Assembly: GCF_964213995.1 (NCBI RefSeq)
Contig: NC_135825.1
Coordinates: 12,338,001 to 12,402,000, forward strand
DNA from: Mustelus asterias
Taxonomy: Eukaryota
Direction: 5' to 3'
DNA length: 64,000 nt
The notes under the pieces were generated by a model. It was not told where the DNA came from. It searched no databases and saw nothing but the letters and a program-made list of their open reading frames with translations. This document shows, one piece after another, positions 2,701-64,000 of this stretch (the first letter of the stretch is position 1; each line of letters begins with the position of its first letter). The position numbers were made by a program, and so were the translations under genes.

Positions 2701-3727
2701 TAATGTGTCATTCCTGGTGCACTGACCTGTGGGGCAGACTGAGGCCCAGATTGCCGTCCCTGGGTCGTGTTCACTGAGTCGGGAAAGGCAATAAAAATGA
2801 GTCGGGACGGGTGACCCGGGAACAAATCCACAGGCTGCTCAGCCCGGAGGTGAGCTGGACACAAGGCCTTTTTCTGTGCCCCAGCGCCATGGTTAATAAA
2901 TAAAATAATGTAAACAATCAAATAATCACTCCGGCCCTGACCGCTCACCAGAGTTTGTCTCAAAGAGTAACTTTCCTCCCCAACGAGTAACTTTCCCCTC
3001 CCAAAGAGTAACTTCCCTCTCCAGAAGGTGTACCCTGGCTGTCCATAAGAATCCACCAAGTTCAGACCTTTTCTTCAATATTCTAATCTGCACATTCCAG
3101 ATTCCACACTCCTGTTCATCCAAAATCCCACTTCAGTCGAGGCAGATGATGAATTTAAGGCAATCCAGAGTTGAACGAATCGCGTGTGTGTGAATGCCAG
3201 CCCGATTGCAGTCCCACTCCCACTCTCCGGGCTTCGAAATTCCAGCCATTCCTGGGATTTTCTCCATGACAGGGAATGTCCAGACCTGGGTGTCAGATTA
3301 ACCTTTCACCTGAAAGACATCACTGAGCTCTGTGAACATGACTGGGGGCAGGAAAATCTGAGCCATCTTGTCCCTCAGTATTACACTGGAATGTTAGTGT
3401 CGGTTTTATACTCCAGTCTCTGGAGTGGGACCTGACCCTGCAATCCACCCATTCAGAGGCGCCAGTGCAAAGCTTGAGTGACAAGGTGACACAATAACAA
3501 TGGCCACTGTACATTAACAAGAAATCATTGTCAGTGAAGGACTTTGGCACTGACAGCACGGCTCTATATTCATGTTTTCATTCATCACAAACCAGAAAGA
3601 GAATGATGAATACAGATATTGGAGAGTTTCCTCTGTACACAGTGGTAAATCTTATTAAAATGTTTCTCTCTGCATTAAGCAGTTATTTACTTGGTCAATC
3701 GCTGAAATGTTGTCTCCTGAGTTTCAG

Positions 3728-4042
3728 GTGCGTTGCAGGCAGAAATGAAATTAACAGGAATTGTGGGAAGATCGATCACAATAAATTGCAAATATAATGG
3801 AAAATACAGACAATATGTGAAATATTGGTGTCAGGGTTGGACTGAACGGTGCTCATATTCAGTGAGAACGGATTATCCAGATGGACGGCGAGGGAGAATG
3901 TCGATCACAGATAACAAGACACAAGCAATATTTGCTGTTACGATGGAGGATCTTCGCCTCGGAGATGCAGGAGGGTACAGCTGTGGTATTGATAAACCTG
4001 GCAAAGATCCAAAGATTGCTGCGGAGCTGCAAATATCTGAGG
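3728..4042 (+). CDS. Gene 1 exon 2: IgV domain V1, CD300/pIgR/TREM-type
   Basis: Acceptor tttcag|3728, donor G|gtacat after 4042. GRSITINCKY...KYWCQGWTERCS...GRMSITDNKTQAIFAVTMEDLRLGDAGGYSCG: B/F-strand Cys, C-strand Trp and the second Cys pair (WCx6C) typical of CD300/pIgR V domains. Confidence 0.92.
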
Positions 4043-4585
4043 GTACATTATTCTCAATGATTTTCTTTATTACTGAAATGTCTGATCCATGTTTTACCCA
4101 CAAGGAAACATTGACAGCTCCGATATCCCGAGGCTCTGCAGCAATGCAGAGTCTGGCAGCCAGAGGGCAGAGATCTGGAAATCCGACTCTTGTGACACAA
4201 ACTCAATTCGTGGCCTGTCCAACATTCTGATCAAAAACTTCAAACATAATCAGACAAACAATTCCTTTAACTATAGGATATTGTGAAATACATTACCTGT
4301 GATTCTCAGAATATTTTCCTGTCTCTGAAATGTATTAAATATCACACTGTCAGATTTTTACAGTCCGGATCAATCCAACAGTCAGACATTAACAAAGTGA
4401 AGTGAGCAGCCAGTTGGCAGTAATTGTACTTGTTGGTTTAGCGCTGAATGGTGGGGCTGTGGGGGTGGGTGGGGGAGCACAGAGAGGGTTACATACACAG
4501 AATTTGACAATATGTTGGGAAGCCAGTCAAACTCCCAACATCCGGATGTATCCGCAATGTGTCAGTTTGTGCTTCTTTCAAATAA

Positions 4586-6014: not shown

Positions 6015-6651
6015 TGTTGTGGGAAATGTACCACTGAGTCAGGCTTGAAGGTTTCAAGAATACAGTTTTATTTTCACGAAGCTTCGTGGAGAAAGGGCAC
6101 TAACAAGCAGCAAACCTTCTCTCAATGAGACAATAGGAGCAGTCCATCTTTACACCCTTTACACAGTAGATGGACCGGACATCTAGCCATTATCACATCA
6201 TTGTAATCAAGTAGGTGATCGATCGTTAACACATCGTTATAGACAAATACAGACAGACACAGACATAAGCATGTTAACATCGCATTGTTCTATGAATGGA
6301 TACATTTCCTACGTCAGTGACCATCAATGGTTTTAGTTTCAGTCTGTTCATACAGCAATTTACAGTAATTGGTTTTCCTGCAGTTATGTATTCCCGATCC
6401 CACCTGTAGCTAATCTCGTTATCCAACCCTATTGTGCTTATCCTAAAGAGTGCCTCAAACCCTGGCTGGCTTCCTGCAGGATTTGATTCCTGCACGTTTA
6501 ACTTTGAATGACTGTCTGTCCTTTATGTTTTAATCTCAGGTGGCTGTCTGTATTGAAAGTCAATGCCTGTTTAATGTCTCTTTCCCAGGTGACTGTTTGT
6601 GTGCCAGGCAGCCATCTTATGTGTACCCATCTGTATATTTTTCCCACTTCA
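6015..6651 (-). repeat. ERV 3' LTR
   Basis: 637-bp direct repeat of 13666-14293; immediately preceded on the minus strand by the polypurine tract. Confidence 0.95.
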
Positions 6652-6663
6652 GTCCCCACTTTT
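6652..6663 (-). other. ERV polypurine tract
   Basis: Minus strand AAAAGTGGGGAC abuts TGAAG, the start of the 3' LTR. Confidence 0.8.
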
Positions 6664-6704
6664 GGTCGGATTATGAGTTTCACTAATCCTGAGACCAACA
6701 ATTT

Positions 6705-8134
6705 TTATATGTATAATTCTTTGTTCTTCTTCTTTCCTTCTTCGTTTCTTCTGATGTCTTCGGGGATCTTCATCGGGGTTTCTTCTTCGACGTATACACT
6801 GGCTCCTGGCACAATTCTAGTCACCATCACCTTGCAACAGACTTTTAGGCATCCAACAATTAGACACCAGACAATTACAATTGAAATGAGCATGACCAAT
6901 CCATGTAATAAGTAAGATTCCCAGGACCCCCCCACTACCCATTCCAGCCAGTTACTTCCTTTCTTGGGTCCCTGTCTGAAGCTATCAAGTTGTTCTCTGA
7001 TGCTATTGATGACCTGTGTAATGTTATAGGACTCGTCTGTGACATGGGTTCTGCATTTATTGCCTATAATTGTACACACTCCCCCTTGTTGTGCTAACTG
7101 ATAGTCCACTGCATATCGTGTCTGTTGTGCATATAATCTCAGTTCAGCCATTTCGTGGTTAACAGCCTCCAGTGCTTTTGAAGTCCTGTTTCCCAGGACT
7201 GTTAGTCCACAAACAATATGATTCCTATTCTTTGCACTAATCACTCCTGCTGCCCCGCCCCCCCGCCCCGCCCCCCCATAGATAAGGCTCCAAGGAACCC
7301 ATATCCCAGTGAAGATCCTATTGTGCCTGGGGCTTCCCAGTCAGCGCAGCATTCTTTGCTGATAGCCCAAATTACTATTCTCCTCCGAATATGCCACTTC
7401 TGAGGGCATGGAACAGTCAGTGGTCCGATTGTTCCTGCTGCAAAACGGTTTGGGAGGTTTGGTATTTCTATCATGTAAGTACCATTGAAGAGCAACACAT
7501 ATCCCTTCTTAGCCCGGTAACATTTAGTGTCTTGATTATGAGTTTGCTCATATTGCCGGTTGTTCGGTTTACTTGACTCCCCGTTTGATCCCACCACCTG
7601 GTAAGTATCAAATGGGTATGTCCATTTGGCTGAGCTTACGTGAGTTCCATTGCATTGTCCACAAATAAGCTGTTTTCCTGCGGTTATATTCAGACATTTC
7701 TGTTCATCACAAGTGCAAGTAAACTGTCCCTTATTAACCCGACAATGTTGATGGACACACTGTGTCTATACGCAGGAATCATTCTTTGGGACCAAGGCAT
7801 AGGCACATCCCCATCCCTGCCCCGTAAAACAAAGCGGATAGCTTGCAGCATCTGAACAAGCTTTTCCTCCCACCTGTTGGATCTTTGGGGTTTACAAGTC
7901 CCACACATCTCCCCTGTATACTTCTTTTATATTTGCCAATTTGTCCCTTACATGATGTATCTGATGTATCTACAGTATATAAGTCATGAGGGGTTCACCC
8001 AGGGGTGGCTACAAATAGGGCTTCTACCGATTGTGCTAGCGGGTAACATACAGTTCAATTCCCGTGTCCAATCCAGTCAAAGTTACAGTCGCGACAACGC
8101 AAAATAGTACAGTTACATACCCGATTACATACAT
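6705..8134 (-). pseudogene. env: ERV env (frameshifted; SU and TM)
   Basis: Signal-like MYVIGYVTVLFCVVATV from 8134; basic cleavage region HIRRR; fusion-peptide-like GSSLGYGFLGALSMGG; ISD-like QQTRYAVDYQLAQQGGVC; CTIIGNKC(R) as a decayed CX6CC; hydrophobic TM LLHGLVMLISIVIVWCLIVGCL. Confidence 0.88.
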
Positions 8135-8282
8135 ATTCGCAATGATCAAATATCAAACCTAACACTATAATTCATATAATCTTTACAAGTTATATTATCT
8201 ATCACCCTGTGCGCGCCAGTCATTCTTGCTTGCAGTCTTTGCCTGTGTTGAGGAAAGCATTTTCGTTAGTTCATCAATTTAA

Positions 8283-11200
8283 TTACTTATTTGTTCTCTT
8301 GTGTAATTTTAGCTGTGTCCAGTGTTTCCAGACCCCTTTCCCTCTTATGTCTATACAGGCACAGGTGTCTCCACTAATTATAACTTCATATGGCCCATTC
8401 CATTTTGGTGCAAACCCTGGTTTGTCAGGTAATGTTTTTACGAGGACTCGACTTCCCACTGTTGGGACGTCAGGGAGCATTTCAAGCTCTCTCTCTGCGT
8501 CTTTTATTTCCTGATTGTCCTTTACCAATTTGCGCATCCCTTTTAGTTGGGTGCTCAGTTCCAATACATATCTCCTGATTTTATCTTTTAGTGGACCTAC
8601 ATCAGTCCCACCTGTTCTGATGCTTTCGGGTAATTGCATCGCCCGTCCTGTCATTCGCTCATGAGAGGTTAATCCGGTTGTCCGGTTTGTGGTAGCTCTT
8701 AATCTCATTAGTATAGTGGGCAATACGCCTGTCCACATTTTTCCTGATGTTTGTATGGCTTTAGCTAGTGCATGTTTCAGTGTTCTATTCATACATTCCA
8801 CCATTCCAGAACTCTGTGGGTGGTAAGGGATGTGAAATTTTTGTTTTATCCCCATTAATTGGCATACTGTTTTTACCACCTTTCCAGTGAAGTGCGTCCC
8901 TTGGTCCGAATCGATTTGTAGGGGTACACCCCATCTAGGGATTACCTCTTCTGCCAATATTCTAGCCACCGTGGTAGCAGTACAATTTGTAGTAGGGAAT
9001 GCTTCTACCCACCTGGTGAACTGGTCTATAATAACCAGACAATAAGTTTTGCCATGGGATTGTGGTAGTGGCCGTGTGAAATCTATTTGCAGATGTTCCC
9101 TTTGGTCTCGGCTGGTGTCCCATTTAAATTTTATGGGTCTACCAGGGTTGTGTTGCGCGCATGTCATGCATCGGTGACAGTGTCGGGCTATATCTCTTCC
9201 CATTCCTTTCCACCACCATTCCTTTCCTATACTAGTTATCATGACTCTCGACCTACTTGTGAGAGTCCATGGTATAGTTCCAATAAGGTGTTTTGTATGC
9301 ACTCTGGTGCTATTACCTTATCTTCCCGTTTCCAAATGTTATCAGTCCCTTTGGCTGCTCCCTGTGCTTCCCACTTCTCCTTTTCCTCCCTTGGGGTATC
9401 CTCATGTAATTCCCGAATATCTATTTTGTCTCCTGTCTGTTCTGTTGCTGCTATTGGCAGCTCGCCAATTGTCTCCTGTCCTGAGGATCACTGTGCCGCC
9501 CTGTCTGCGGCTTGGTTCCCTTTGAAATTGAACCAGTCCGGGTTATCTCTTCCTGGTTCTTTCTGGTGCGCTTTAATTTTGATTACTGCGGTTTCTCGAG
9601 GTTTCTCGCTAGCTCTCAATAATGCCTCAATTCTTTGCTGGTGCTTAATAGGGGTCCCTCCTGTGGTTATGAACCCTCTTCTTCCCCATGCTGCCATGTA
9701 GTCATGTATGACCCCGAATGCATAGCGACTGTCTGTATAGATGTTTACCGTTTTACCTTCAGATAACTCTAGTGCCTGTGAGAGTGCCACTAGTTCTGCC
9801 ACTTGCGCGGATAGACCTCCGTCAATCCTTTCTGACCTTACTGTCTCTAATTTGTCATTCACTACTGCCCACCCTGTGCGGGGTGATACTTCCACATATT
9901 TGCGTGACCCATCCACAAAAAAGGTCTCCTTGGCTGTTATTAAGGGAACGCATTCCAACCATTATTCATGTAAATTGAGTCTGTGTCTTTATATGCCCTG
10001 TTTGTGAACAGAATTCCCACTCACCTGAAGAAGGGGCTTGGAGCTCCGAATGCTTGTGTGGCTTTTGCTACCAAATAAACCTGTTGGACTTTAACCTGGT
10101 GTTGTTAAACTTCTTACTGTGTTTAACCCAGTCCAATGCCGGCATCTCCACATCATCTCTTTCTGTCGCCATGGTCTTGTGTTACCATGGCGGAATAGAA
10201 CCCTCCCTCATTACTACAATGGATATGGAAGTCCTTATTAGAATCGGGTAATCCTAGTCCAGGGGTTGATATCAGTTCTGTTTTCAGTTTAGTGTAAGCC
10301 TCTTCCTGCTCGGGTCCCCATTCTACAGGATCCAAAGCTGGTTTTCCCCCATTGACTCGTCTTTGTATGGGTTCTGCTAATTTTGCGAACTCTGGGATGA
10401 AACTGGGGCTATAGTTGAATAGTCCGAGCATCTTTCTGACCCCTCTTCCAGTGATGGGTCACGGAATTTGTTGTATTGCCTTCTTTCGGTCCGTTGGCAT
10501 TTCTTTAAGTCCTTGGGATATAAGGCGTCCTCGGTATAGGACCTGTGTTTTCCCGATTTGTGCCTTTTTGGGGCTCACCTTTAACCCTGCGGCTTTTAAT
10601 TCATTCAGTACTAAATCTAAGGCTTCTTGATGTCCTGACTTGGACTCCGAAGCTATCAGGATATCATCTACATATTGTAGGACCGTACTACCCTCTGGCA
10701 GTTCTACCCGGTTCAGGATGTCACTCATTGCTCGATGGAATATAGCGGGGCTGTTGTGGAATCCCTGTGGTGAATGAGTCCAAGTGTACTGCCTGTCTCC
10801 CACTGGAAAGGCAAATTTGTCTTGGGATTCAGGATCCAATGGTAAGGACCAGAATCCATTGGCTACATCCAACACTGTGAATATTTTATGCTCCTGTACA
10901 GTCCATTCAGGATTGTCGAAGGGCTTGCTACAATGGGGTGCAATTTGGACGTGACTTTATTGAGTCCGGTGTAATCTATCGTGAGCCTATAGCTTCCGTC
11001 AGGCTTGCTCACTGGCCATGCTGGGGAGTTAGTGGTGCTTGTGGTTTCTCCCAGAATCCCCCTTTCCACTAACCCTTTAACGATCTCCACTGCAGCTTTC
11101 TCTGCCTCTGGTTTGATTGGGTATTGTCGGTGTGGCTTATGCTCCGGTCCCGGGACCTTTATTGAGTCCGTTTTAGTCAAACCGGTTTCTAACTTCGTTT

Positions 11201-11637
11201 TAGCCCATACTCCAGGGACGGAGGCACAGATGGCTCCAAACCCTCCTGTTTCTAATTCCCAATTTCTGGTGGTGACTGTGGCCACCTTAATAGTTTTGAG
11301 GTGACTTGTAAGTTTCCCTATTCTAGTTTTCTGACCGTCCTGTGTTGGCCAGATTAATTCTCCCTTTCCAGTCTATCAGAATCTCCTTTTCTTTCTTCAG
11401 ATCATTTCCCATTATTGTACCCTCGTTATTTTTGCACACATAAAACCTCATTGGTATGTACAGATTATTTATCTCTACTAAGGTGGTCTCGCTCAGGTAG
11501 GCGGGTGTTTTGTTCTCTCCTATCCCGGTCAGGTAAATCACTTTATTTGTAGTGGGTAAGGGTAGGTCGGTGACAGATATGGACACTCCTGTGTCCACTA
11601 GCATCTCACATTGTCTGCCCCCTACTTGTGCTGACAC
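8283..11637 (-). pseudogene. pol: ERV pro-pol (protease, RT, tether, RNase H, integrase), multiply frameshifted and interrupted
   Basis: LVDTG protease; QYPIKPE, LDVANGFWSLPL, PQGFHNSP and LQYVDD in RT; FFVDGS, AQVAELVAL and NIYTDSRYAFG in RNase H; HCHRCMTC, HLQIDF, WVEAFP, DSDQGTHF, HPQSSGMVE and KWNGPYEV in integrase. Confidence 0.95.
9949..10155 (+). mobile_element. Penelope-like terminal-repeat fragment inserted in ERV pol
   Basis: Matches the arm of the 4586-4967 element and sits between the tether (..DHGDRKR) and RNase H (CVPLITAK..) segments. Confidence 0.8.
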
Positions 11638-11685
11638 GTAAATCCTTCCCTCCTTCTTACCCTTGTGAATGGGGGCTGCAGACCG

Positions 11686-13099
11686 TCAATCTTGCTGACC
11701 CCGGAGGTCCTGTGGTTCCTCCGGTTCTGCTGTGGTCATGGATCGGGTCGGGGGTTTCCCATGCTTATTCCAACACACTGCTTCTGTGTGTCCATATTTA
11801 TTACAGTGGCTGCAATGTTTCCCACTGTTCCCAAATCTGTTCCCTTTCCGTGGAGTCCCGCAATCCCTCGCAAAGTGTCCTTGCCGGCCACAATTGTGGC
11901 AAGTCAGTTTAGACTTTGTTCCCTTCCCATTACTGTAGGCTGCTACTCTTTCCAGCCTTGTTCTTGCCTGGGATTTCTCTTCTCCCGGTACTCCGCAAGC
12001 CCACTCTACCAACTCAGCGTAATCTTGGGACATAATCACTCCCATTTTTAGGATGACCTGGTGAGCACTGGAGAGTCCATCCTTAAAAGCCTGGATGAAC
12101 TCTTGATCCCCTCGACCTGGGTTCCCTTGTCCTGAGCACTCTTGATATATCTGGAACAATTGTTCCCCGTATTCAGAAGCTCCTTCCCATTTTAACTGTT
12201 TTGTTGTGGTAATTCTGCTCCAGTTGGTGGGAGCATTCCCTAATACCCTCTGAATCTCTGCTTTAAACTGGGTGAAGGTTGGGCATCTATCTCCGATGTT
12301 AGGGCGATTGCATGTGTCCACCGTCCCTTGTTATAATCCTGTGCTGGAGGAGCGGTGGGTCCACCTGCTACCTGCCTCCACTTATCCGCTGGACAGGCTG
12401 CCCTGACCAGCTGGTGTACGTCTCTCAGGTGTAATTGGTGTCCTAACCAGATTGTGTCTAATTCTTCCCAGAATTTAGTGTTTGCACTTCTCTCTCACCT
12501 GGGGTGAAGGGTTGATAAGTTGCCTTTGGTCGCGCATTTGTTCCCCCTCGGGGTACTGGCGCTAAGTTGTGTTTTAGCACTTCCCACTCCTCTGAAGGAG
12601 CGGTTGGTCTCTCCTGTGTGGACTCATAAGGAGGTAGAGGAACAGTTTCCCCTCTCCATTGCTTTTCTTCTAAAACCTGGTTTTGCTTTTCCAGTTCCCT
12701 CACTCGGGATTCCAATTCTCTAATCCTTTCCTTATCTTCACTCCACTTCTTAGTAGAGGCGACTACTTGCTCAATTAGACCAGCTAACTCATGTGTTAAC
12801 ATTACTCCTATCTTCTTTGTCTTGTTTCTCTTTTCTTTATCTATCCACTTTCTCTGCTGCTCTAAGGTCTGAGATATATCCCAGCCATCCTTTTGCATTC
12901 TCTTTATTAACTCTTTCCTGTCTGTCATGTAAATTTCAATGAGAGAACCTGCAGGTCCCCTTTTAACTTCATTATCTGCTATTTTGCAGACTTCACTAAC
13001 CCCGGCCACGATTACTCCCTGGTGAAGTGTGCTCTCTACCGTAGGGACTTCGCTACCCCCGGCCACTATTACTACTCTAGCACTGTGTTTCACTACCAT
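11686..13099 (-). pseudogene. gag: ERV gag (frameshifted) with two CCHC zinc knuckles
   Basis: ORFs 12458..13099 and 11686..12321: coiled-coil region, PPY late-domain-like LPPYE, YQPFTPGE, and CHNCGRQGHFARDC plus CSHCNKYGHTEAVC (CX2CX4HX4C x2). Confidence 0.88.
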
Positions 13100-13644
13100 T
13101 ACAGGGTTTCAAGTTATACTCATGGTTTCCACTATTACCACCTCGGCAATGTGCTTCTCCACCGGAGTCCGGTTTAGTTCAGAGTTGATCAAGCTCCTTT
13201 TCCGTCCCGCTTTTCACAACATTGACAGTACAGTTCCCAACTGTCCAAACTTTCATGCAATCAGATGGCAACTCTGCGTTTGTTCACCACGACAGAGTTT
13301 GATGTTAACCGACCTCTGCCACTTATCTCTTTACCCACTTCAATCTCCTGGCCTTCGTGTGGGAGGTTCCTCCTCTTAACAACCGGTCTAAGGCAGGGTT
13401 TTGAGACAGGCACGACCTTGTCCTCTTGTCGGTCAGCACAAGCAACAGTTACTTATCACTATCAGCAGTTAGTACTTATCACTATATCATATACAACAAT
13501 ACTTATTTCTACAAATACCCCTTAAGTTTAACCCCTTAAGTTTAACCCCTTGCAAACTGTATGCTTGACCTTGTCTGACACTCACAGATTCAGTGATCTG
13601 TACCCTGGCTCCGATCGTGGCCAATCGATCTCACCAGTAACAGG

Positions 13645-13663
13645 ATCCATGCTGACTACGCCA
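13645..13663 (-). other. ERV primer binding site, tRNA-Ser type
   Basis: The + strand ..atccatgctgactacgcca closely matches the 3' end of vertebrate tRNA-Ser (..ATCCTGCCGACTACG-CCA). It is separated from the 5' LTR by a 2-nt spacer. Confidence 0.8.
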
Positions 13664-13665
13664 AT

Positions 13666-14293
13666 TGTTGTGGGAAATGTACCACTGAGTCAGGCTTGAA
13701 GGTTTCAAGAATACAGTTTTATTTTAACGAAGCTTTGTGGAGATAAGGCACTAACAAGCAGCAAACCTTCTCTCAATGAGACAATAGGAGCGGTCCATCT
13801 TTATACCCTTTACACAATAGATGGACCGGACATCGAGCCATTATCACATCATTGTAATCAAGTAGGTGATCGATTGTTAACACATCGTTATAGACAAATA
13901 CAGACAGATACAGACATAAGCATGTTAACATCGCATTGTTCTCTGAATGGATACATTTCCTACATCAGTGACCATCGATGGTTTTAGTTTCGGTCTGTTC
14001 ATACAGCAATTTACAGTAATTGGTTTTCCTGCAGTTATCTATTCCCGATCCCACCTGTAGCTAATCTCGTTATCCAACCCTATTGTCTTTATCCTTAAGA
14101 GTGCCTCAAGCCCCGGCTGGCTTCCAGCAGGATTTGATTCCTGCATGTTCAACTTTGAATAGCTGTCTGTCCTTTATGTTTTAATCTCAGGTGTCTCTCT
14201 GTACTGAAAGTCAGTGCCTGTTTAATGTCTCTTTCCCAGGTGACAGTGTGCCAGGCTCTTATGTGTACCCATCTGTATATTTTTCCCCCTTCA
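13666..14293 (-). repeat. ERV 5' LTR (TATA box ~13800, AATAAA ~13720 on minus strand)
   Basis: 628 bp; about 30 substitutions plus small indels versus the 3' LTR by manual count (~95% identical). Confidence 0.95.
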
Positions 14294-56610: not shown

Positions 56611-58234
56611 GAGGGTTAACCAGCTTAATATTCTCATTGTTTGAGGAAAGTGTCATTCTCCAGCCTCACTCATCGCCAACTACATCTAGGGAAATACACA
56701 GCCCCGTGTCAGGGAGTTGAGCAGAGGTATCCTTACATTGGAATTGAGTCTGCCTCCCAGTTACTCAATCACAATTTACTTTTGCCCAGAGAATTTTCTC
56801 TGTGAATTGAGATACTTTTCTGCCTGAAATCTGCCTCATAATTTGTTTGTGGATCTGATACATGGAGCAGCGAAGGTTGTTCTACTCCATATCAGGTCTC
56901 CTCACCCTGACAGAATTGTTGCTCATCACCAACAATAAGATTGAGATTAAGCAAATTAAAACAAATTATCAATTAAACTTAATATTTAAGTGATTTTCAT
57001 AAAAGCTGTTGTGGGGCTGTTTTTGCTCAATCCTTTATCTTGCTGGAGACTTTGTTCCCTTCAAGTAGCCAGACCAGGTTTCAGAGTTTTAAATCACCTG
57101 TTTATTGGTAGCTATAGTAAGAGCCATAGCACTCCAGCTAGTGGCAAGCCAGAGCCCTGAATGCACAAACAGATATATTTCCAGTTTTGATTACAAATAA
57201 TAAACACATACCAATCAGAAGTATGCATTTCTATAGGAGTTATTTCTGTCCACTCACAACCATGGATTAAGGTTACATCATACATGAGATACAAATGTTA
57301 AAAACCAGTCACAACCTTTGTATATTATCCAATCCATGTAAAAGTTTGAATATGCGAGGTGACCCTTGCACATTGTCCTTAACACCCAGTTTATGTCTAT
57401 ATTTGTGGATATCAATTACCTCTCCCATGTCCAGATATCTGACTTAATGAATTCTCTCAGACAATGTGCTCACCTTGAAACTGGAAAATCCCACCCGAGT
57501 TCAACAGACCTTTCCATGGTCCGAATCTTTGTCCACTACAATTCCCGTGGCAGGTGGAATGGGAAAATTTGCCTCTATGAGTCTTAGATAGATAAACAAA
57601 CCGAGACTCTAGTGTCGTCTCCCTCTGTTATTTGTAGGCCCTTTAGTTGTCTGGACAGGCACTCATTGTTTTCTCATCTGTCAGGGTTGCCCTCTGTGAG
57701 GTTTTCTGCTTGAGAACTGACATCTAAAATTATGTCCTTGAATCTTTACTTGCAGCTGGCAGGAGTTATGATTTTCTGCTAAGCTTAGTTATTAAACCCT
57801 TTAACTGAACATGACTATTATTATAGCCACTAACCCTCTTCAAATCAAAAATACTTGTTTTACAGAGGGGGACGTGGACTTTTTATAAGATGGAAGGGGG
57901 CTGGCTCTAACTTGCCTCCTAATTCGGTGGGAATAATTAACTTGTTCACCATTTTCCATCTATTCTAACTTTTTATGACTGTTTCATTGTTCAGGATTTT
58001 ATATTCTTTCAATGCAAGCTGGTGTAGTTCTTTTGTTAGAGGTGACTAACAGAAATTCAAGATCTTACGGGCCAGATTTCATCATCTGGATTACTGAGCT
58101 TTCATAACATAACTTCCTGTTGTCTTCTTCCTCATTTAAATTCCTTCTACAATTTATATTTTACACTTATTTCAATGTAAGACACAGGAGCTGGGTGACT
58201 GACGACAAGCACTGATCTGATCTCCAACACAACG

Positions 58235-58271
58235 ATGTGGATTTTGATTCTCCTCATTTGCTCTCTGCCTG
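58235..58271 (+). CDS. Paralogous receptor gene 2 exon 1: signal peptide (MWILILLICSLP-G); rest of gene presumably beyond the window
   Basis: Homologous to 959-995, including the 5' flank (gagctgggtgac.gacga) and continuing intron-1 similarity. Confidence 0.82.
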
Positions 58272-58382
58272 GTGAGTAACAGCCAGAGCTGGATAGTCAG
58301 ATAATCAGTGTTAGTTTAACTCTAGTCCACAGGTTATACGGCAGAGATGTTTAAATATTTGGAGACGTGTAAAGGCACAAAA

Positions 58383-58723
58383 GGCGGTTTTGTGTTGCAG
58401 TGGGTAGAGTCTCTGTATCTGAGCCTGAAGCTCCAGGTTCGAGTCTTGCTCCTGCTATTGATGGGAATGGAAGGTGGGTTCTAACAAGGCCAAACAGTTT
58501 GATTATCGACCTGAAAACTGTTCCAATACGCTGAAGGCAGGTGGTAAGAGGGAGAGATACTCAGTCAGCAATGTCTTGATGTGGAGTGATGTCCCTCATG
58601 CTATAGTCTCTGACTTTAGGCTTGTGACCAGGACCAGGAAGGACAAGCTATTGGAAACAGACACACACATTTGCTTTGTCTGCCTCATGTATCTCCAGAT
58701 TTGGGAAGTCTCCTAAGTCTAAT
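58383..58723 (+). mobile_element. tRNA-derived SINE (different family)
   Basis: A/B-box head (gcagtgggtag..ggttcgagtc), 9-bp TSD GGCACAAAA (58374-58382, 58724-58732); absent from the homologous intron of gene 1. Confidence 0.75.
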
Positions 58724-59649
58724 GGCACAAAATACTTCGAAAATATAAATGAATAATATTTATGATGTATTGTATCTCCTCGTGAATATGTTAGCACAAC
58801 ATGCATACATTCACCAAATAAAGTAAATTGCATTATTAATTGCGGATAGGAAATTCAGGATAATTTAATTTAAAAAAATCTAAGCAAGCTATACTTAGAA
58901 ATGGAAGCTGTTTTTAATTGGTAATTGTTTGAAATTGTGTGCGGGGAGGTTTCACATTCTCACTTGTCCCGAAACCATAAAATCCCGCCCGAGGTGAATG
59001 GAGCTTCTCACTGTCTGCCCGTCGCCCGCTCCGATTCCCGTGGCGGGCGGGACGGTAAAATTCCAGTGGTTATCTGTTGTGCAATACACACTGAAAACTG
59101 CATAAAACTGGTAATAATCCTACAAACAGAACATGTCTCGCATTTGCAACTGTTTCTGTTGTTTAACGTACAGTTGATCAGATATGATTTTATGAACTTC
59201 TGTCAGTGACAATGCTCCTCTTTCGCAGACAATTCGTTCATAGTCATCTTCCTAATATTTTTCTTTTAATTCTTTAACCTTATTAAACTGGATTTCACTT
59301 TTCACTCCTGCCCATTTTAACATTATCGAATACTACATGGCAATGGAGTTTTTGATCAACATTATCTACTCTCCACCATTTAAAATTGGTCTATTTTCTA
59401 ACTAGCGATGACAAACTCTCTCTTCTTGAATTTCAACTCAACTTGACCAAAATTCCCAGCATGCTTGGTTGTCAATCTTAACAATTCTCATTGTTGCTGT
59501 TGCCATTGGCTACATGGCTACAATCCCTACTCTTGATCCTAGAGTGTGAAGAGAATTGGATCATAAATTGGATCAAATTCCTTCTCACAGGTTAGTCTTA
59601 AACAATGAGCATATTCTCATTATTGTATCCTTGCAAGTAACTAAATTTT

Positions 59650-61851
59650 CACCTATGTAACATCAATTCCATGTTCAACTGTTGAGATCGCTCTATTCAA
59701 TTTAACAAACTGAATCATAAATAATATTAAATAAATTAAAGTACACAATGTTATTAACACTTCAACATGAGACATTAGACAAATCCATGGATGAATCTGC
59801 ATATTTGTACGCCAGTCCCATAAATCGTTCCACCAGTTAGTCCTTTTGATTGGTCTATTTTAATCTCCCCAGTTCTTTGAGCCACTTTAGTAAAAGTTTG
59901 ATCGGCATCAGCAAATTGCATCTTAATTTGTATCAGATTCTCTGGTAAAAGCTAAGTATTAGTGTCATATTTTTCAAAATAGTTACCCAATGTCCCTTTA
60001 AGATCATCTGTAACATTAAAAGAAACTTCCTCTTTCTTATGTATATCAATGAATTCCATACAGCCTATTCCAGCTGGTATTCGAGTTTTAAAGCAAAAAG
60101 TAGCATTGGTCATATTACATATTAATGTACCATATCGATATTCCTTCAGTCAGGAAGTAACACAATATTCTCTTATAAGCTCCCCTTGTAATATTTGTAT
60201 CAAGACTTTTAGCTTCAATTGTACAATCTAACTTCACATCTGCTTTAAAACTACATAAAGCCTCTTCATTAGAATGTATTGGGTAAGGACACATAATTAT
60301 TTCATCTGTTTGTTGACATTTATTAAGATTAGTATCTACTAATCTACCCCTCTTCTCAACTGCTTATGGGAAGATATCATGATACCCTATCCACATGTCC
60401 TTTTCAATAACTCTTACAGTCTCTACTTAAACCAACTTCATCTATTGGAATTTTTGGAATCCCTAAAATCATTCCTCAGGCTTTTCCTAGGACTCCTCGA
60501 CAATTGTTCTCAAACCAAACTCTACTCAGCTGTTAAAATTGACAACTTGATATATTCGGATGTCTCCCTCCATGAATCAAATATTCTAACTGTACATTGT
60601 TAATCCAAGACGGAACCTTTCCCTGGTTAACTTGTTCAAGATTCTACAGAAGTTGTTTTATCATCCAGTTGCCATAAATACTACACAGAGTCCTGTCCTG
60701 CTGTCAGACATCAGCTGTTATTTTTCTTTTAATACGTTGATTTATAGTCTGAGCATGTCCTTCTGATATTGTGACCATATAGTTATCAACTTGATTTTCA
60801 ACTAACTCCCCTTTAGTGTTCAATTGATCATTAGCATTTATGTTAGTTAAAATCTGTTTGATCTTTTGTGTTAAAATTCTTAGTTTATTATCCAAATTGA
60901 CTAGATCAAGTGTTTTAACAGTCGACATGCTCACACCGCAGGCTGTTGCTAAGTCATTGAAAAATTCCCTTTTTTGCTGACTATTTGATTGTAAACCTAC
61001 TTCCCTTTCACTATTCCCTGTCTCTTGTTCTAACAACTTCTGAGTCAAAATGAAAACACAGTTCCCCAATTTGAGAAGGACACCATTCTGGTTGTTGAAT
61101 CCCAGTTCCATCTAACACTTCAGGTATTAATTCATGATGGACATTTTGTATAGAATTTTACCAGCTTCCTCCATAACCAACCCATTTTGTGGTCCTGAGG
61201 TTACTTTAGGACAAGTGTTCACTACAGGTGTAGGTATTGTTGTAGGAGCTACACTAGGTTTAGAAGTGGGAGGTTTAGGTTCTCTCTTTACGTGATCAAA
61301 AACGTAATAATCATCTTCTTTAAGTGATTCCCTGCGAATATCCCTATGTTCATTATCATAAGAAATACCCCAAATTACCCTCTTTAAAACTATTGGTACG
61401 GTGGCACAGCGCTTAGCACTGCTGCCCCACAGCGCCAGGGACCTGGGTTCAATTCCCGGCTTGGGTCACTGTCTGTGCGGATTCTGCATGTTCTCCCCGT
61501 GTCTGCGTGGCTTTCCTCCGGGTGCTTTGGTTTCCTCCCACAGTCAAAAGATGTGCAGGCTAGGTGGGTTGGCCATCCTAAATTGCCCCTTAGCGTCAGG
61601 GGGACTAGCTAGGGTAAATGCATGGGGTTATGGGGATAGGGCCTGGGTGGGATTGTGGTCAGTGCAGACTCAGTGGGCCAAATGGCCTCCTTCTGCACTG
61701 CAGAGATTCTATGATACCCCTTCCATTTTGAGGAAAACAGGTTTTACATAGAATCGCAAAATGTAAACAGGATGGAGATGACAAGATAAAACAACTTTAA
61801 TCTGTGTCAGATTGGATTTGAATCATGTCACAGTAGGAGCTGTTTTACCAT
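59650..61851 (-). pseudogene. env: Degraded viral class I fusion glycoprotein (F-like env) gene
   Basis: Manual translation across stops and frameshifts: signal-like KLFYLVISILFTFC, GPQNGLVMEEAGKILY, cleavage QQKR|EFFNDLATACGVSMSTV, heptad repeat, QGKVPSWI, Cys-rich CQQTDEIIMCP..C..DCTI..YCVTS..C..FCF, WWNDLWDW and a TM segment. Confidence 0.75.
61397..61714 (+). mobile_element. HE1-like SINE inserted in the env remnant
   Basis: Full-length SINE from gtacggtggcacagcgcttagcac to gagattctatga. Confidence 0.8.
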
Positions 61852-62857
61852 CTGACAAAAGAATCTCCCACACATTAATATTCTCATCCGAATATTATCA
61901 ACACATCAAATTCAACCCGTAAACGTCCATTTTCATAACATCCCACTCTCTGTGGAGTAAAGCATAGATCTCCCAGCTGGTCTTCAGTATGTTCATCTCA
62001 AAACACCACCTCCCACGATAATGCATTGATCACCGATCCAAGAAGAATGATTTCCATAAAGAACTCCATCTAAAAACACTCTATAATAGAATCAAGGTTG
62101 TACCTGCTATTATGTCCAGTCTACAACCAGTTCCTAATTTGAACTATTTTAATTTCCAGAAACAGTTGATATACGATGTTTACCAGTTTATGGAGATATT
62201 AATAAGTCAGGACTTTCTTGATATTTGTGAAGAATCGGATTGGGATGATAACATCTCTGGTGAGGCTAAAAGATTTTCCCTCGGAAACCAAGCCTCAAAG
62301 CTAAACCTGAGATGACTAACAATTCATAGGATTAAACCCTTGCAGACTTATTAGTAAGCTACAATTAGAGAGTAAATACACCCCCTACCATAATTCACAG
62401 AGATCCGCACATGGAAGATGAGCCAAACTATCAACTTACATCAAACAATAAAAGCATTGATAAGGTGTTAAAACCAATACTTCACTGATAATTTGTCTAA
62501 ACAAATGAAAATATGTAGGACGATGATGGCTACCAATCAAAAACCATCAAAAATAACATAAGCTACAAGCGTTATTAAAACACAGATCCAAACTACCAAA
62601 ACAAACAGAATGAAAATCAGTTCTTGGGCATCAGAAATGATTAATCCTGGTGAACAGGAATCATCTCATCATTTGGAACTTGCCCAATCGTATCATTCTT
62701 CACCAGATTTCCCTCGTCCTGAATTTCTACAATCTAAACACCTGTTAGCTCATCACTTGTCCCCTTGTTCACATCGAGGGATCTAACTAAACGATTTTGC
62801 TCATCTCATACCCAAGCGAGCTTCACTGATCCCTGTGACAGGGTTGATGCAATATCA

Positions 62858-62965
62858 GACTATCTGTCTGATTATCTGTCCGATTATCTGTCTGATTATC
62901 TGTCCGATTATCTGTCTGATTATCTGTCTGACTATCTGTCTGATTATCTGTCTGATTATCTGTCT
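62858..62965. repeat. Minisatellite, 9 x 12 bp (GAYTATCTGTCY)
   Basis: Direct reading; produces the DYLS/QTDN/RQII repeats in the ORF track. Confidence 0.95.
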
Positions 62966-63164
62966 GCAAAGTCTGCATTGGTGAAGAATCAGATGGAGAA
63001 GAATCAAACCAAAAGAAAAGGAACGAGCATATGGGCCACATGTTTTCAACACAACACGATATTGATGATTATACTGAGTACTATATACCTTCATTTGATT
63101 TACATGATACCATCCAGTCTTTCCAGAATCCATTAACACCTTCTACACAGATGGACTCATCTTT

Positions 63165-64000
63165 AGAACATATAACATTCCAGCGCAGTACAGGCCCTTC
63201 GGCCCTCGATGTTGCGCCGACCAGTGAAACCAATCTAAAGCCCCTCTAATCTACACTATTCCAATATCATCCATATCTTTATCCAATAACCAGTTGAACG
63301 CTCTCAACATTGACGAGTCCACCACTGCTGCAGGCAGGGCATTCCACGCCCTTACTACTGTCTGAGTAAAGAACCTACCTCTAACATCTGTCCTATATCT
63401 CTCACCGCTCAATTTAAAGCTATGTCCCCTCGTGCTAGCCAACACCATCAGAGGAAAAAGGCTCTCACCATCCACCCTATCTAATCCTCTGATCATCTTG
63501 TATGCCTCTATTAAGTCACCTCTTAACCTTCTTCTCTCTAACGAAAACAACCTCAAGCCCCTCAGCCTTTCCTCATACGATTTTCCCACCATACCAGGCA
63601 ACATCCTGGGAAATCTCCTCTGCACCCTTTCCAACACTTCCACATCTTTCCTATAATACGGCGACCAGAACTGTACGCAATACTCCAAATGTGGCCGCAC
63701 CAGAGTTTTGTACAGTTGCAGCATGACCTCCTGGCTCCGAAACCCAATCCCTTTACCAATAAAAGCTATCACACCGTATGCCTTCTTAACAACCCTATCA
63801 ACCTAGGTGCCAACTTTCAGGGATCTATGCACATGGACACCCAGATCCCTCTGTTCATCCACACTACCAAGTATCTTACCATTAGCCCAGTACTCTGTAT
63901 TCCTGTTACTCCTTCCAAAGTGAATCACCTCACACTTTTCCGCATTAAACTCCATTTGCCACCTCTCAGCCCAGCTCTGCAGCTTATCTATGTCCCTCTG
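63165..64000 (-). mobile_element. CR1 LINE 3' part (runs off the window)
   Basis: ORF 63251..63772(-): LYKTLVRPHLEYCVQFWSPYYRKDVEVLERVQRRF..RGDLIEAYK. Confidence 0.93.

Follow-up and report, generated by a model that had tools for sequence, protein, structure and literature searches.

The window analysed here, a stretch of 64,000 nucleotides from Mustelus asterias (NC_135825.1, positions 12,338,001 to 12,402,000), carries on its minus strand the degraded core of an envelope gene at 59656-61393, comprising a Pro/Thr linker, an F2-like segment, a cleavage site, an F1/TM-like subunit and a short tail. Three-frame translation of that strand gives an intronless path of 576 codons that runs from 61393 to a stop at 59658-59656. 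Seven stops lie within the path, against 47.6 expected by chance at the local composition (TGA at 60706, 60478 and 60152; TAG at 60646 and 59954; TAA at 60535 and 60366), and five frameshifts fall near 61148, 61050, 60425, 60170 and 59852. Because the path was picked by homology and frame, its homology scores are stronger evidence than the stop count. Individual shark relatives are collinear with the fossil in tblastn and reach 61315. A profile of 25 natural relatives (alignment A2 minus its four window rows), run against six frames of the whole window, matches only 61249-59689, in successive frames, with a best score of 225 bits (iE 5e-68). The degraded gene of roughly 600 codons proposed in a first-pass annotation of this DNA is borne out by these matches, and they support the locus as a real shark fossil of an env gene of endogenous viral origin.

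With seven stops, five frameshifts and a SINE insertion, the window copy is dead and unable to make protein. The annotation had attributed several TGA stops to decayed CGA codons; three of the seven are indeed TGA, while the remainder are two TAG and two TAA. The CpG observed/expected ratio is 0.31 at the fossil and 0.39 window-wide, and the stops are not confirmed as mainly a product of CpG decay.

Features of the fossil gene

From the linker onward, the fossil matches the element order of a class Ib fusogen. The Pro/Thr-rich linker (61208-61279, minus strand, as are all parts of the gene) ends in a Cys-Pro motif common to relatives, one of which (P0020) matches 61315-60941; in intact relatives this linker connects an N-terminal Cys-rich domain with the fusion core. 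The predicted start of the core, an F2-like strand and the next segment, lies at 61050-61195 in two frames and corresponds to profile positions 179-253, each piece scoring 19 bits. The out-and-back frameshift pair near 61148 and 61050 places the first ~20 residues of an annotated 135-aa open reading frame off-frame. A putative KR cleavage site (60973-60968) and presumed fusion peptide follow at 60900-60973. The fossil has KR without the full R-X-K-R found in an intact relative, and the peptide behind it, annotated as an N-terminal fusion peptide, is weakly hydrophobic. The next stretch, at 60640-60900, is HR1-like by virtue of a long helix in a relative's model. The long heptad repeat claimed for the fossil is not borne out by its own sequence: periodicity is not significant in any of four windows (p 0.23-0.89), and only for the intact relative does the model predict long helices. 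A helix/strand core with a Cys-rich region occupies 60050-60640, as placed by tblastn, the profile and structure alignment of the relative. At 59656-59950 the gene closes with an HR2-like stretch, a Trp-rich membrane-proximal segment, a TM helix, a short tail and the stop; the single strong TM lies at about 59760-59704 (KD 2.59). The Pro/Thr-rich, Cys-rich, Trp-rich and TM elements are all present and in the order first described. The labels F2, HR1 and HR2 are presumptive. Also as first described, a six-frame scan of 59000-63200 reveals neither CX6CC nor any ISD-like motif.

A SINE insertion of 324 bp (61394-61717), which we take to be a shark SINE, cuts the gene, and the remnant begins directly after it on the minus strand; the window holds eight other matches to this element at 73-88%. 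The insertion went unnoticed in the first-pass annotation. The minus-strand DNA beyond it (61718-63160) may be a longer SU, an accessory ORF or unrelated sequence. This interval yields no match to the relatives' profile and no Pfam match below E 0.4 in six frames, and searches upstream of the SINE with the N-termini of four relatives, as well as with two integrase tails, yield nothing significant. The start and signal peptide annotated at 61851 are rejected as unsupported: the site lies upstream of the SINE, between stops, and has no match among relatives. Other start or signal-peptide candidates, at 62069 and 63042, are unproven. A tandem repeat of 12 bp x 8.8 occupies 62861-62966; following the ATG at 63042, one of its minus-strand frames translates as a series of N-x-T sequons. 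The minus strand of 61718-62700 is rich in T (35-38%), in contrast to the A-rich env core (36% A), and this interval contains a very hydrophobic 19-mer at 62620 (KD 3.39).

On its 5' side the element is bounded by the 3' part of a LINE (63165-64000, minus strand), presumably CR1-like. Beside the LINE end, at 63083-63142 on the minus strand, are possible last codons of an integrase: a W-x-H-x-x-Q-[LM]-K motif at 63112 whose sole other copy in the window is the integrase end of an endogenous retrovirus (ERV) at 8330. This resemblance is suggestive only, as the pattern is loose, is expected 0.3 times per window and was chosen after both sites had been seen. No LTR pair is present in 57000-64000, no RT or gag is recognised at the locus, and no long repeat or Rfam family is found near it; the remainder of an LTR-gag-pol-env element would fall past the end of the window. 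Directly downstream of env, a degenerate repeat (59143-59377) is 70-75% like 1621-2193, where it is also split by a SINE; this repeat may be a DNA-transposon remnant, with no significant Pfam match. Elsewhere the plus strand carries a tandem array of host exons (3721-4230 and about 15900-37100) in which a V-set and a second Ig domain repeat about every 2.5-4.5 kb (Pfam V-set 4e-11, Ig_3 2e-7); we assume it to be CD300/pIgR-like.

A shark family of probable envelope genes

Among 1.84 billion representative proteins, phmmer finds 19 matches to the fossil env (best 9.6e-38). All 13 that carry species names are from sharks, namely Scyliorhinus torazame, Mustelus asterias, Pristiophorus japonicus, Heterodontus francisci, Chiloscyllium punctatum and Rhincodon typus. 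A profile search returns 26 matches, of which 24 are named, again all sharks, and adds C. plagiosum. The family is carried by both shark superorders, Squalomorphii and Galeomorphii, and the host guessed at first, a cartilaginous fish, agrees with every named relative. These proteins are annotated as uncharacterised or hypothetical throughout, and no informative Pfam match was obtained among the relatives scanned, the fossil pieces or the six upstream frames. Because Pfam finds no match, the shark family would escape envelope screens which, like that of PMC4422223, depend on similarity to a known Env.

The family spans sharks and includes intact, recent copies in one species. M. asterias has five env-family loci, with intact copies of 701-714 aa. 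Two of these, XP_078074422.1 (714 aa) and XP_078084570.1 (701 aa), are 99.4% identical and lie on different scaffolds, of 140.6 and 168.2 Mb, a pattern to be expected of an element that was mobile recently. C. punctatum has 17 gene models of the family. Intact relatives overall measure 699-722 aa, have an ordinary N-terminal hydrophobic start and place about 75 aa, with no insert, between the first strand of the core and the cleavage site. One of them, P0026, shows the full order of signal peptide, cleavage site, fusion peptide, HR1, Cys-rich domains, HR2 and TM; it has one CXXC in its N-terminal domain and neither ISD nor CX6CC. Two intact members of 722 aa (P0048 and P0049) are encoded on contigs whose lengths, 9139 and 8984 bases, are about that of a provirus.

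From the Pro/Thr linker to the TM, the fossil is collinear with XP_078074422.1/XP_078084570.1, Heterodontus XP_067888393.1, Scyliorhinus GCB82951.1 and chiPu_0018518. The window copy differs from these relatives in being broken and in its divergent subclade, to which no intact protein among the matches belongs; beyond the linker, its upstream DNA has no counterpart in them. A tree built from 22 of 29 rows, after removal of seven that were short or unlabelled, places the window copy with Scyliorhinus, Heterodontus, Chiloscyllium and some fragments (support 97/96), apart from the Mustelus-type envelopes. The tree is used only to show this separate subclade because it is unrooted and has long branches. 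Over compared columns, the fossil is 38-63% identical to its own subclade and 23-30% to the rest, including ~28% to the Mustelus-type envelopes.

Predicted fold

Structure prediction was applied to an intact relative, ~28% identical to the fossil over compared columns, rather than to the fossil itself. The model of the whole protein is of low confidence (pLDDT 53.7, pTM 0.28), and a core-only model is worse (pLDDT 42.2). In Foldseek searches of the PDB, the first 13 listed rows for the whole model are foamy Env and the hMPV, measles and RSV F proteins (best E 0.012), with foamy Env at the top, and F or foamy Env fills 17 of the 35 listed rows. For the core model this rises to 35 of 36 listed rows, with RSV F best (E 3.1e-3) and both RSV and hMPV above foamy Env. 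These row counts are not independent because many chains derive from few proteins, and no PDB match reaches E 0.001 with either model. Among the predicted viral structures of BFVD, three matches pass that value: a water-strider virus glycoprotein (2.4e-4), a myriapod virus glycoprotein and a torovirus spike. A fish paramyxovirus F0 comes next, within the top four. The Env models of WDSV and WEHV1 appear at BFVD ranks 9 and 13 (E 0.03 and 0.06); their place among F-like neighbours hints that epsilonretrovirus Env may also be F-like.

Alignment to F-type cores by VIA is confined to residues 307-426 of the relative. Foamy Env gives Z 5.7 (rmsd 3.1, 113 residues), hMPV Z 5.5, and RSV and measles Z 5.0; the set as a whole (113-122 residues, rmsd 3.1-4.4, Z 5.0-5.7) is tied and lies below the level of trust (Z < 8). 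A wide unbiased VIA search is uninformative, with generic coiled coils on top (best Z 6.5). Ig-like matches of the relative's N-terminal domain are disregarded (Z 2.5-3.2, pLDDT under 50). ESM Atlas features offer a lead only: Gypsy/Baculo_F clusters come first for P0010 residues 20-520 (0.88-0.90), with PF00523 at 0.86 for part of P0010, and P0026 gives a PF00523 cluster at 0.91 and foamy Env at 0.87, in a search that skipped four families and had a low recognition value (1608 against 2300). Against the PDB, phmmer of the fossil returns only short weak matches (best E 0.025). A weak sequence match to foamy Env with profile A1 (E 0.026) is not reproduced with profiles A2 and A3.

Since F and foamy Env lead the ranks although the models are of low confidence, an F-like fold for the family is likely, not proven; we consider the chances good on the strength of these models. 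The annotated F-like viral envelope is upheld to this extent by fold. At the level of Pfam it is not, as PF00523 matches neither the fossil pieces nor the 19 relatives nor intact P0026.

A working protein can be pictured from intact XP_078074422.1 (714 aa), with a mechanism modelled on known class Ib fusogens (PMC11468914). The signal peptide would lead Env into the secretory pathway, where cleavage at R-x-K-R by a furin-type protease would release the fusion peptide for insertion. The N-terminal Cys-rich domain of about 130 aa, carried on the Pro/Thr linker, would bind a receptor. A trimeric coiled coil would form as HR1 extends, and the fold-back of HR2 would merge the membranes, with neither ISD nor CX6CC involved. 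Membrane fusion by intact family members is a prediction by analogy.

Probable polymerase backbone and origin

The comparison element is the window's full ERV (6015-14293, minus strand), which has 637-bp LTRs at 93.7%, two CCHC-type knuckles, a separate RNase H, an integrase and an ISD-type env. Its primer-binding site presumably resembles tRNA-Ser. By bit score its RT is nearer to the top MLV/foamy-type entries (79-82) than to Ty3 (57-59), the best PDB match of its integrase is PFV, and the best Pfam match of its env is Ebola-like HR1-HR2 (4e-8). Ebola-like ectodomains are described from cartilaginous-fish retroelements as sister to those of filoviruses in the available text of PMC11521997. 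Within the ERV pol, an inverted copy (9949-10156 against 10282-10496, about 95%) marks a local rearrangement in the RT/tether. The two envelopes in the window are unrelated, as first proposed: hhalign gives a probability of 1.4% between the F-like family and the ISD-type env. The end of the family's HR1 aligns over 23 columns with the ISD region of the other env (window 6708-7340 in this comparison), both reading Q-Q-G-x-x-C; this is probably chance.

A link between the family and a pol gene comes from the Chiloscyllium protein chiPu_0018518 (P0027), in which 75 aa of integrase tail precede an F-like env. These 75 residues are 41% identical to the integrase tail of the window ERV (E 1e-15); the match scores 65.9 bits, and none of 200 shuffles exceeds 27.7. 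P0027 is a single automatic gene model from another subclade than the fossil and could join two neighbouring elements. The first-pass annotation had proposed a search for intact copies linked to pol and LTRs; intact copies are found, and among 47 relatives P0027 alone shows a pol piece beside the family env. A word-index search of proteins of 1251-3570 aa, a weak negative, yields no Pol-Env fusion.

An integrase tail 41% identical to that of an ISD-type ERV suggests envelope exchange on a related retroviral backbone, and two envelope classes on related pol backbones is the simplest reading of this sequence match. The backbone likely belongs to a canonical retrovirus that shares the pol lineage of the window's ISD-type ERV, and not to loki or Gypsy, which would imply envelope exchange in shark retroviruses. 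Taken together, the locus is a dead copy of a shark-wide gene family that probably provided the Env of an endogenous retrovirus, with an F/foamy-like predicted fold, a likely canonical retroviral backbone and an implied history of envelope exchange.

Two already described groups, foamy-like (spuma) viruses and WDSV-like epsilonretroviruses, might instead have supplied this Env in sharks. The foamy Env ranks above, the A1 match, the Atlas value for P0026, the WDSV and WEHV1 models and the PFV-like integrase of the window ERV all point this way, and a start near 63042 would give about 1000 codons, the size of foamy and WDSV Env. One study reportedly describes a cartilaginous-fish foamy virus. 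Against this origin, the intact relatives are only 699-722 aa with an ordinary hydrophobic start, no foamy Env Pfam match is obtained for the fossil or relatives, RSV and hMPV overtake foamy Env with the core model, and the extra domain lies before the core, whereas the foamy receptor-binding domain lies inside it (PMC11468914, available text). We regard this origin as unlikely. The literature searched describes no family of F-like envelopes from shark ERVs; the cartilaginous-fish foamy paper, Repbase/Dfam or supplements could contain one.

A second alternative is the env of a lokiretrovirus, or of a near sister group, overlooked in sharks by the published screen. The layout fits the description in the available text of PMC7947760, the Foldseek signal is F-like, and the divergent subclade of the fossil (97/96) could have its own pol, the backbone being unseen at the locus. 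Lokiretroviruses are defined by their RT, and the same text reports them in about 120 ray-finned fishes and in none of six chondrichthyan genomes, four of which (C. punctatum, C. plagiosum, S. torazame and R. typus) carry the F-like env family. Marks of a lokiretrovirus are an RT within the loki clade, a tether plus RH and a CGIN1-like integrase. Despite that wide occurrence in ray-finned fishes, no named non-shark protein is among the 19 and 26 matches, and PF00523, which matches Loki-Str Env at 2.2e-7 (PMC7947760), matches nothing here. A missed loki element is therefore quite improbable.

An envelope-bearing Ty3/Gypsy element of errantivirus type is less plausible still. Gypsy/Baculo_F clusters are the top Atlas features for P0010 residues 20-520, and F-type env is widespread in invertebrate errantiviruses according to the available text of bioRxiv 10.1101/2023.10.26.564294. 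Neither PF07253 nor PF12259 matches the fossil pieces, the 19 relatives or intact P0026, and, as indirect evidence, the integrase tail linked to env in one relative matches an ERV whose RT is of retrovirus type, whose RNase H is separate and whose env carries an ISD. On these grounds the "loki-like or env-bearing Gypsy" assignment of the first-pass annotation is not supported. A non-retroviral insertion copied from a mononegavirus F mRNA, or else a host membrane-protein gene in decay, to which the lack of an LTR or recognisable pol at the locus and the RNA-virus glycoproteins among the best structural neighbours would lend themselves, is highly improbable given the many dispersed, near-identical intact copies, the integrase link, the intronless path and the absence of any convincing cellular Pfam family for the fossil or relatives.

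Implications of the family

Interest in the preferred reading, a shark env family on a canonical retroviral backbone, lies in the family, as the window copy has no function of its own. Four scenarios for the origin of retroviral Env are listed in PMC7947760, and independent Env acquisition by loki and canonical retroviruses is preferred in PMC9040795. An F-like Env family that spans sharks, has intact copies and is linked to a pol lineage also found with ISD-type Env would directly test both envelope exchange and an ancestral F-type Env. It is possible, if rather doubtful, that sharks carry an undescribed, recently active retroviral lineage with a compact class Ib Env, an N-terminal receptor-binding domain carried by a Pro/Thr linker and the pol lineage of the ISD-type ERV. 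If so, an F-like env would sit on a pol lineage that elsewhere uses an ISD/filovirus-type envelope, and a single group of shark retroviruses would have swapped envelopes of both classes. Canonical retroviruses other than foamy viruses would then also have F-type Env, perhaps as an ancestral trait, and it would not be an independent loki acquisition.

Comparison with known envelopes

Among known systems, gamma-type Env is set apart, since the fossil and P0026 have neither ISD nor CX6CC in TM and give no TLV_coat or Ebola-like Pfam match. Errantivirus Env shares only a resemblance in Atlas features. WDSV and WEHV Env, described as fish retroviral envelopes lacking gamma-type hallmarks (PMC9967133, available text), resemble the shark env in that respect and in weak fold matches; these matches are not significant, and the WDSV/WEHV models measure 1159-1317 residues against about 700.

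Lokiretrovirus Env is likewise a vertebrate retroelement Env with an F-like layout, which the available text of PMC7947760 gives as signal peptide, R-x-K-R, fusion peptide, coiled coil and TM. Its R-x-K-R site is present in an intact shark relative, while the fossil has KR only. The shark env is set apart from it by description, in lacking a PF00523 match and in occurring in a group where the survey reports no loki-positive genome. Paramyxovirus and pneumovirus F (PF00523) share with the shark env the order of elements, the best fold ranks and a short, uninterrupted F2-like segment before the cleavage site. Unlike F, the shark env has an extra N-terminal Cys-rich domain and a Pro/Thr linker, goes unmatched in Pfam and forms a multi-copy genomic family linked to integrase.

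Foamy Env, which has the F fold and is a class Ib fusogen (PMC11468914, available text), resembles the shark env in the predicted F-type core (Z 5.7, rmsd 3.1, 113 residues), in furin-type cleavage and in the lack of ISD and CX6CC. It differs in size, at about 990 aa against about 700, and in its leader-peptide TM, which is absent from intact shark relatives. The foamy receptor-binding domain is inserted inside the core, between N-SU and C-SU, whereas the extra domain of the shark relatives precedes the core. If the proposed lineage is real, its Env architecture differs from those of both foamy Env and paramyxovirus F.
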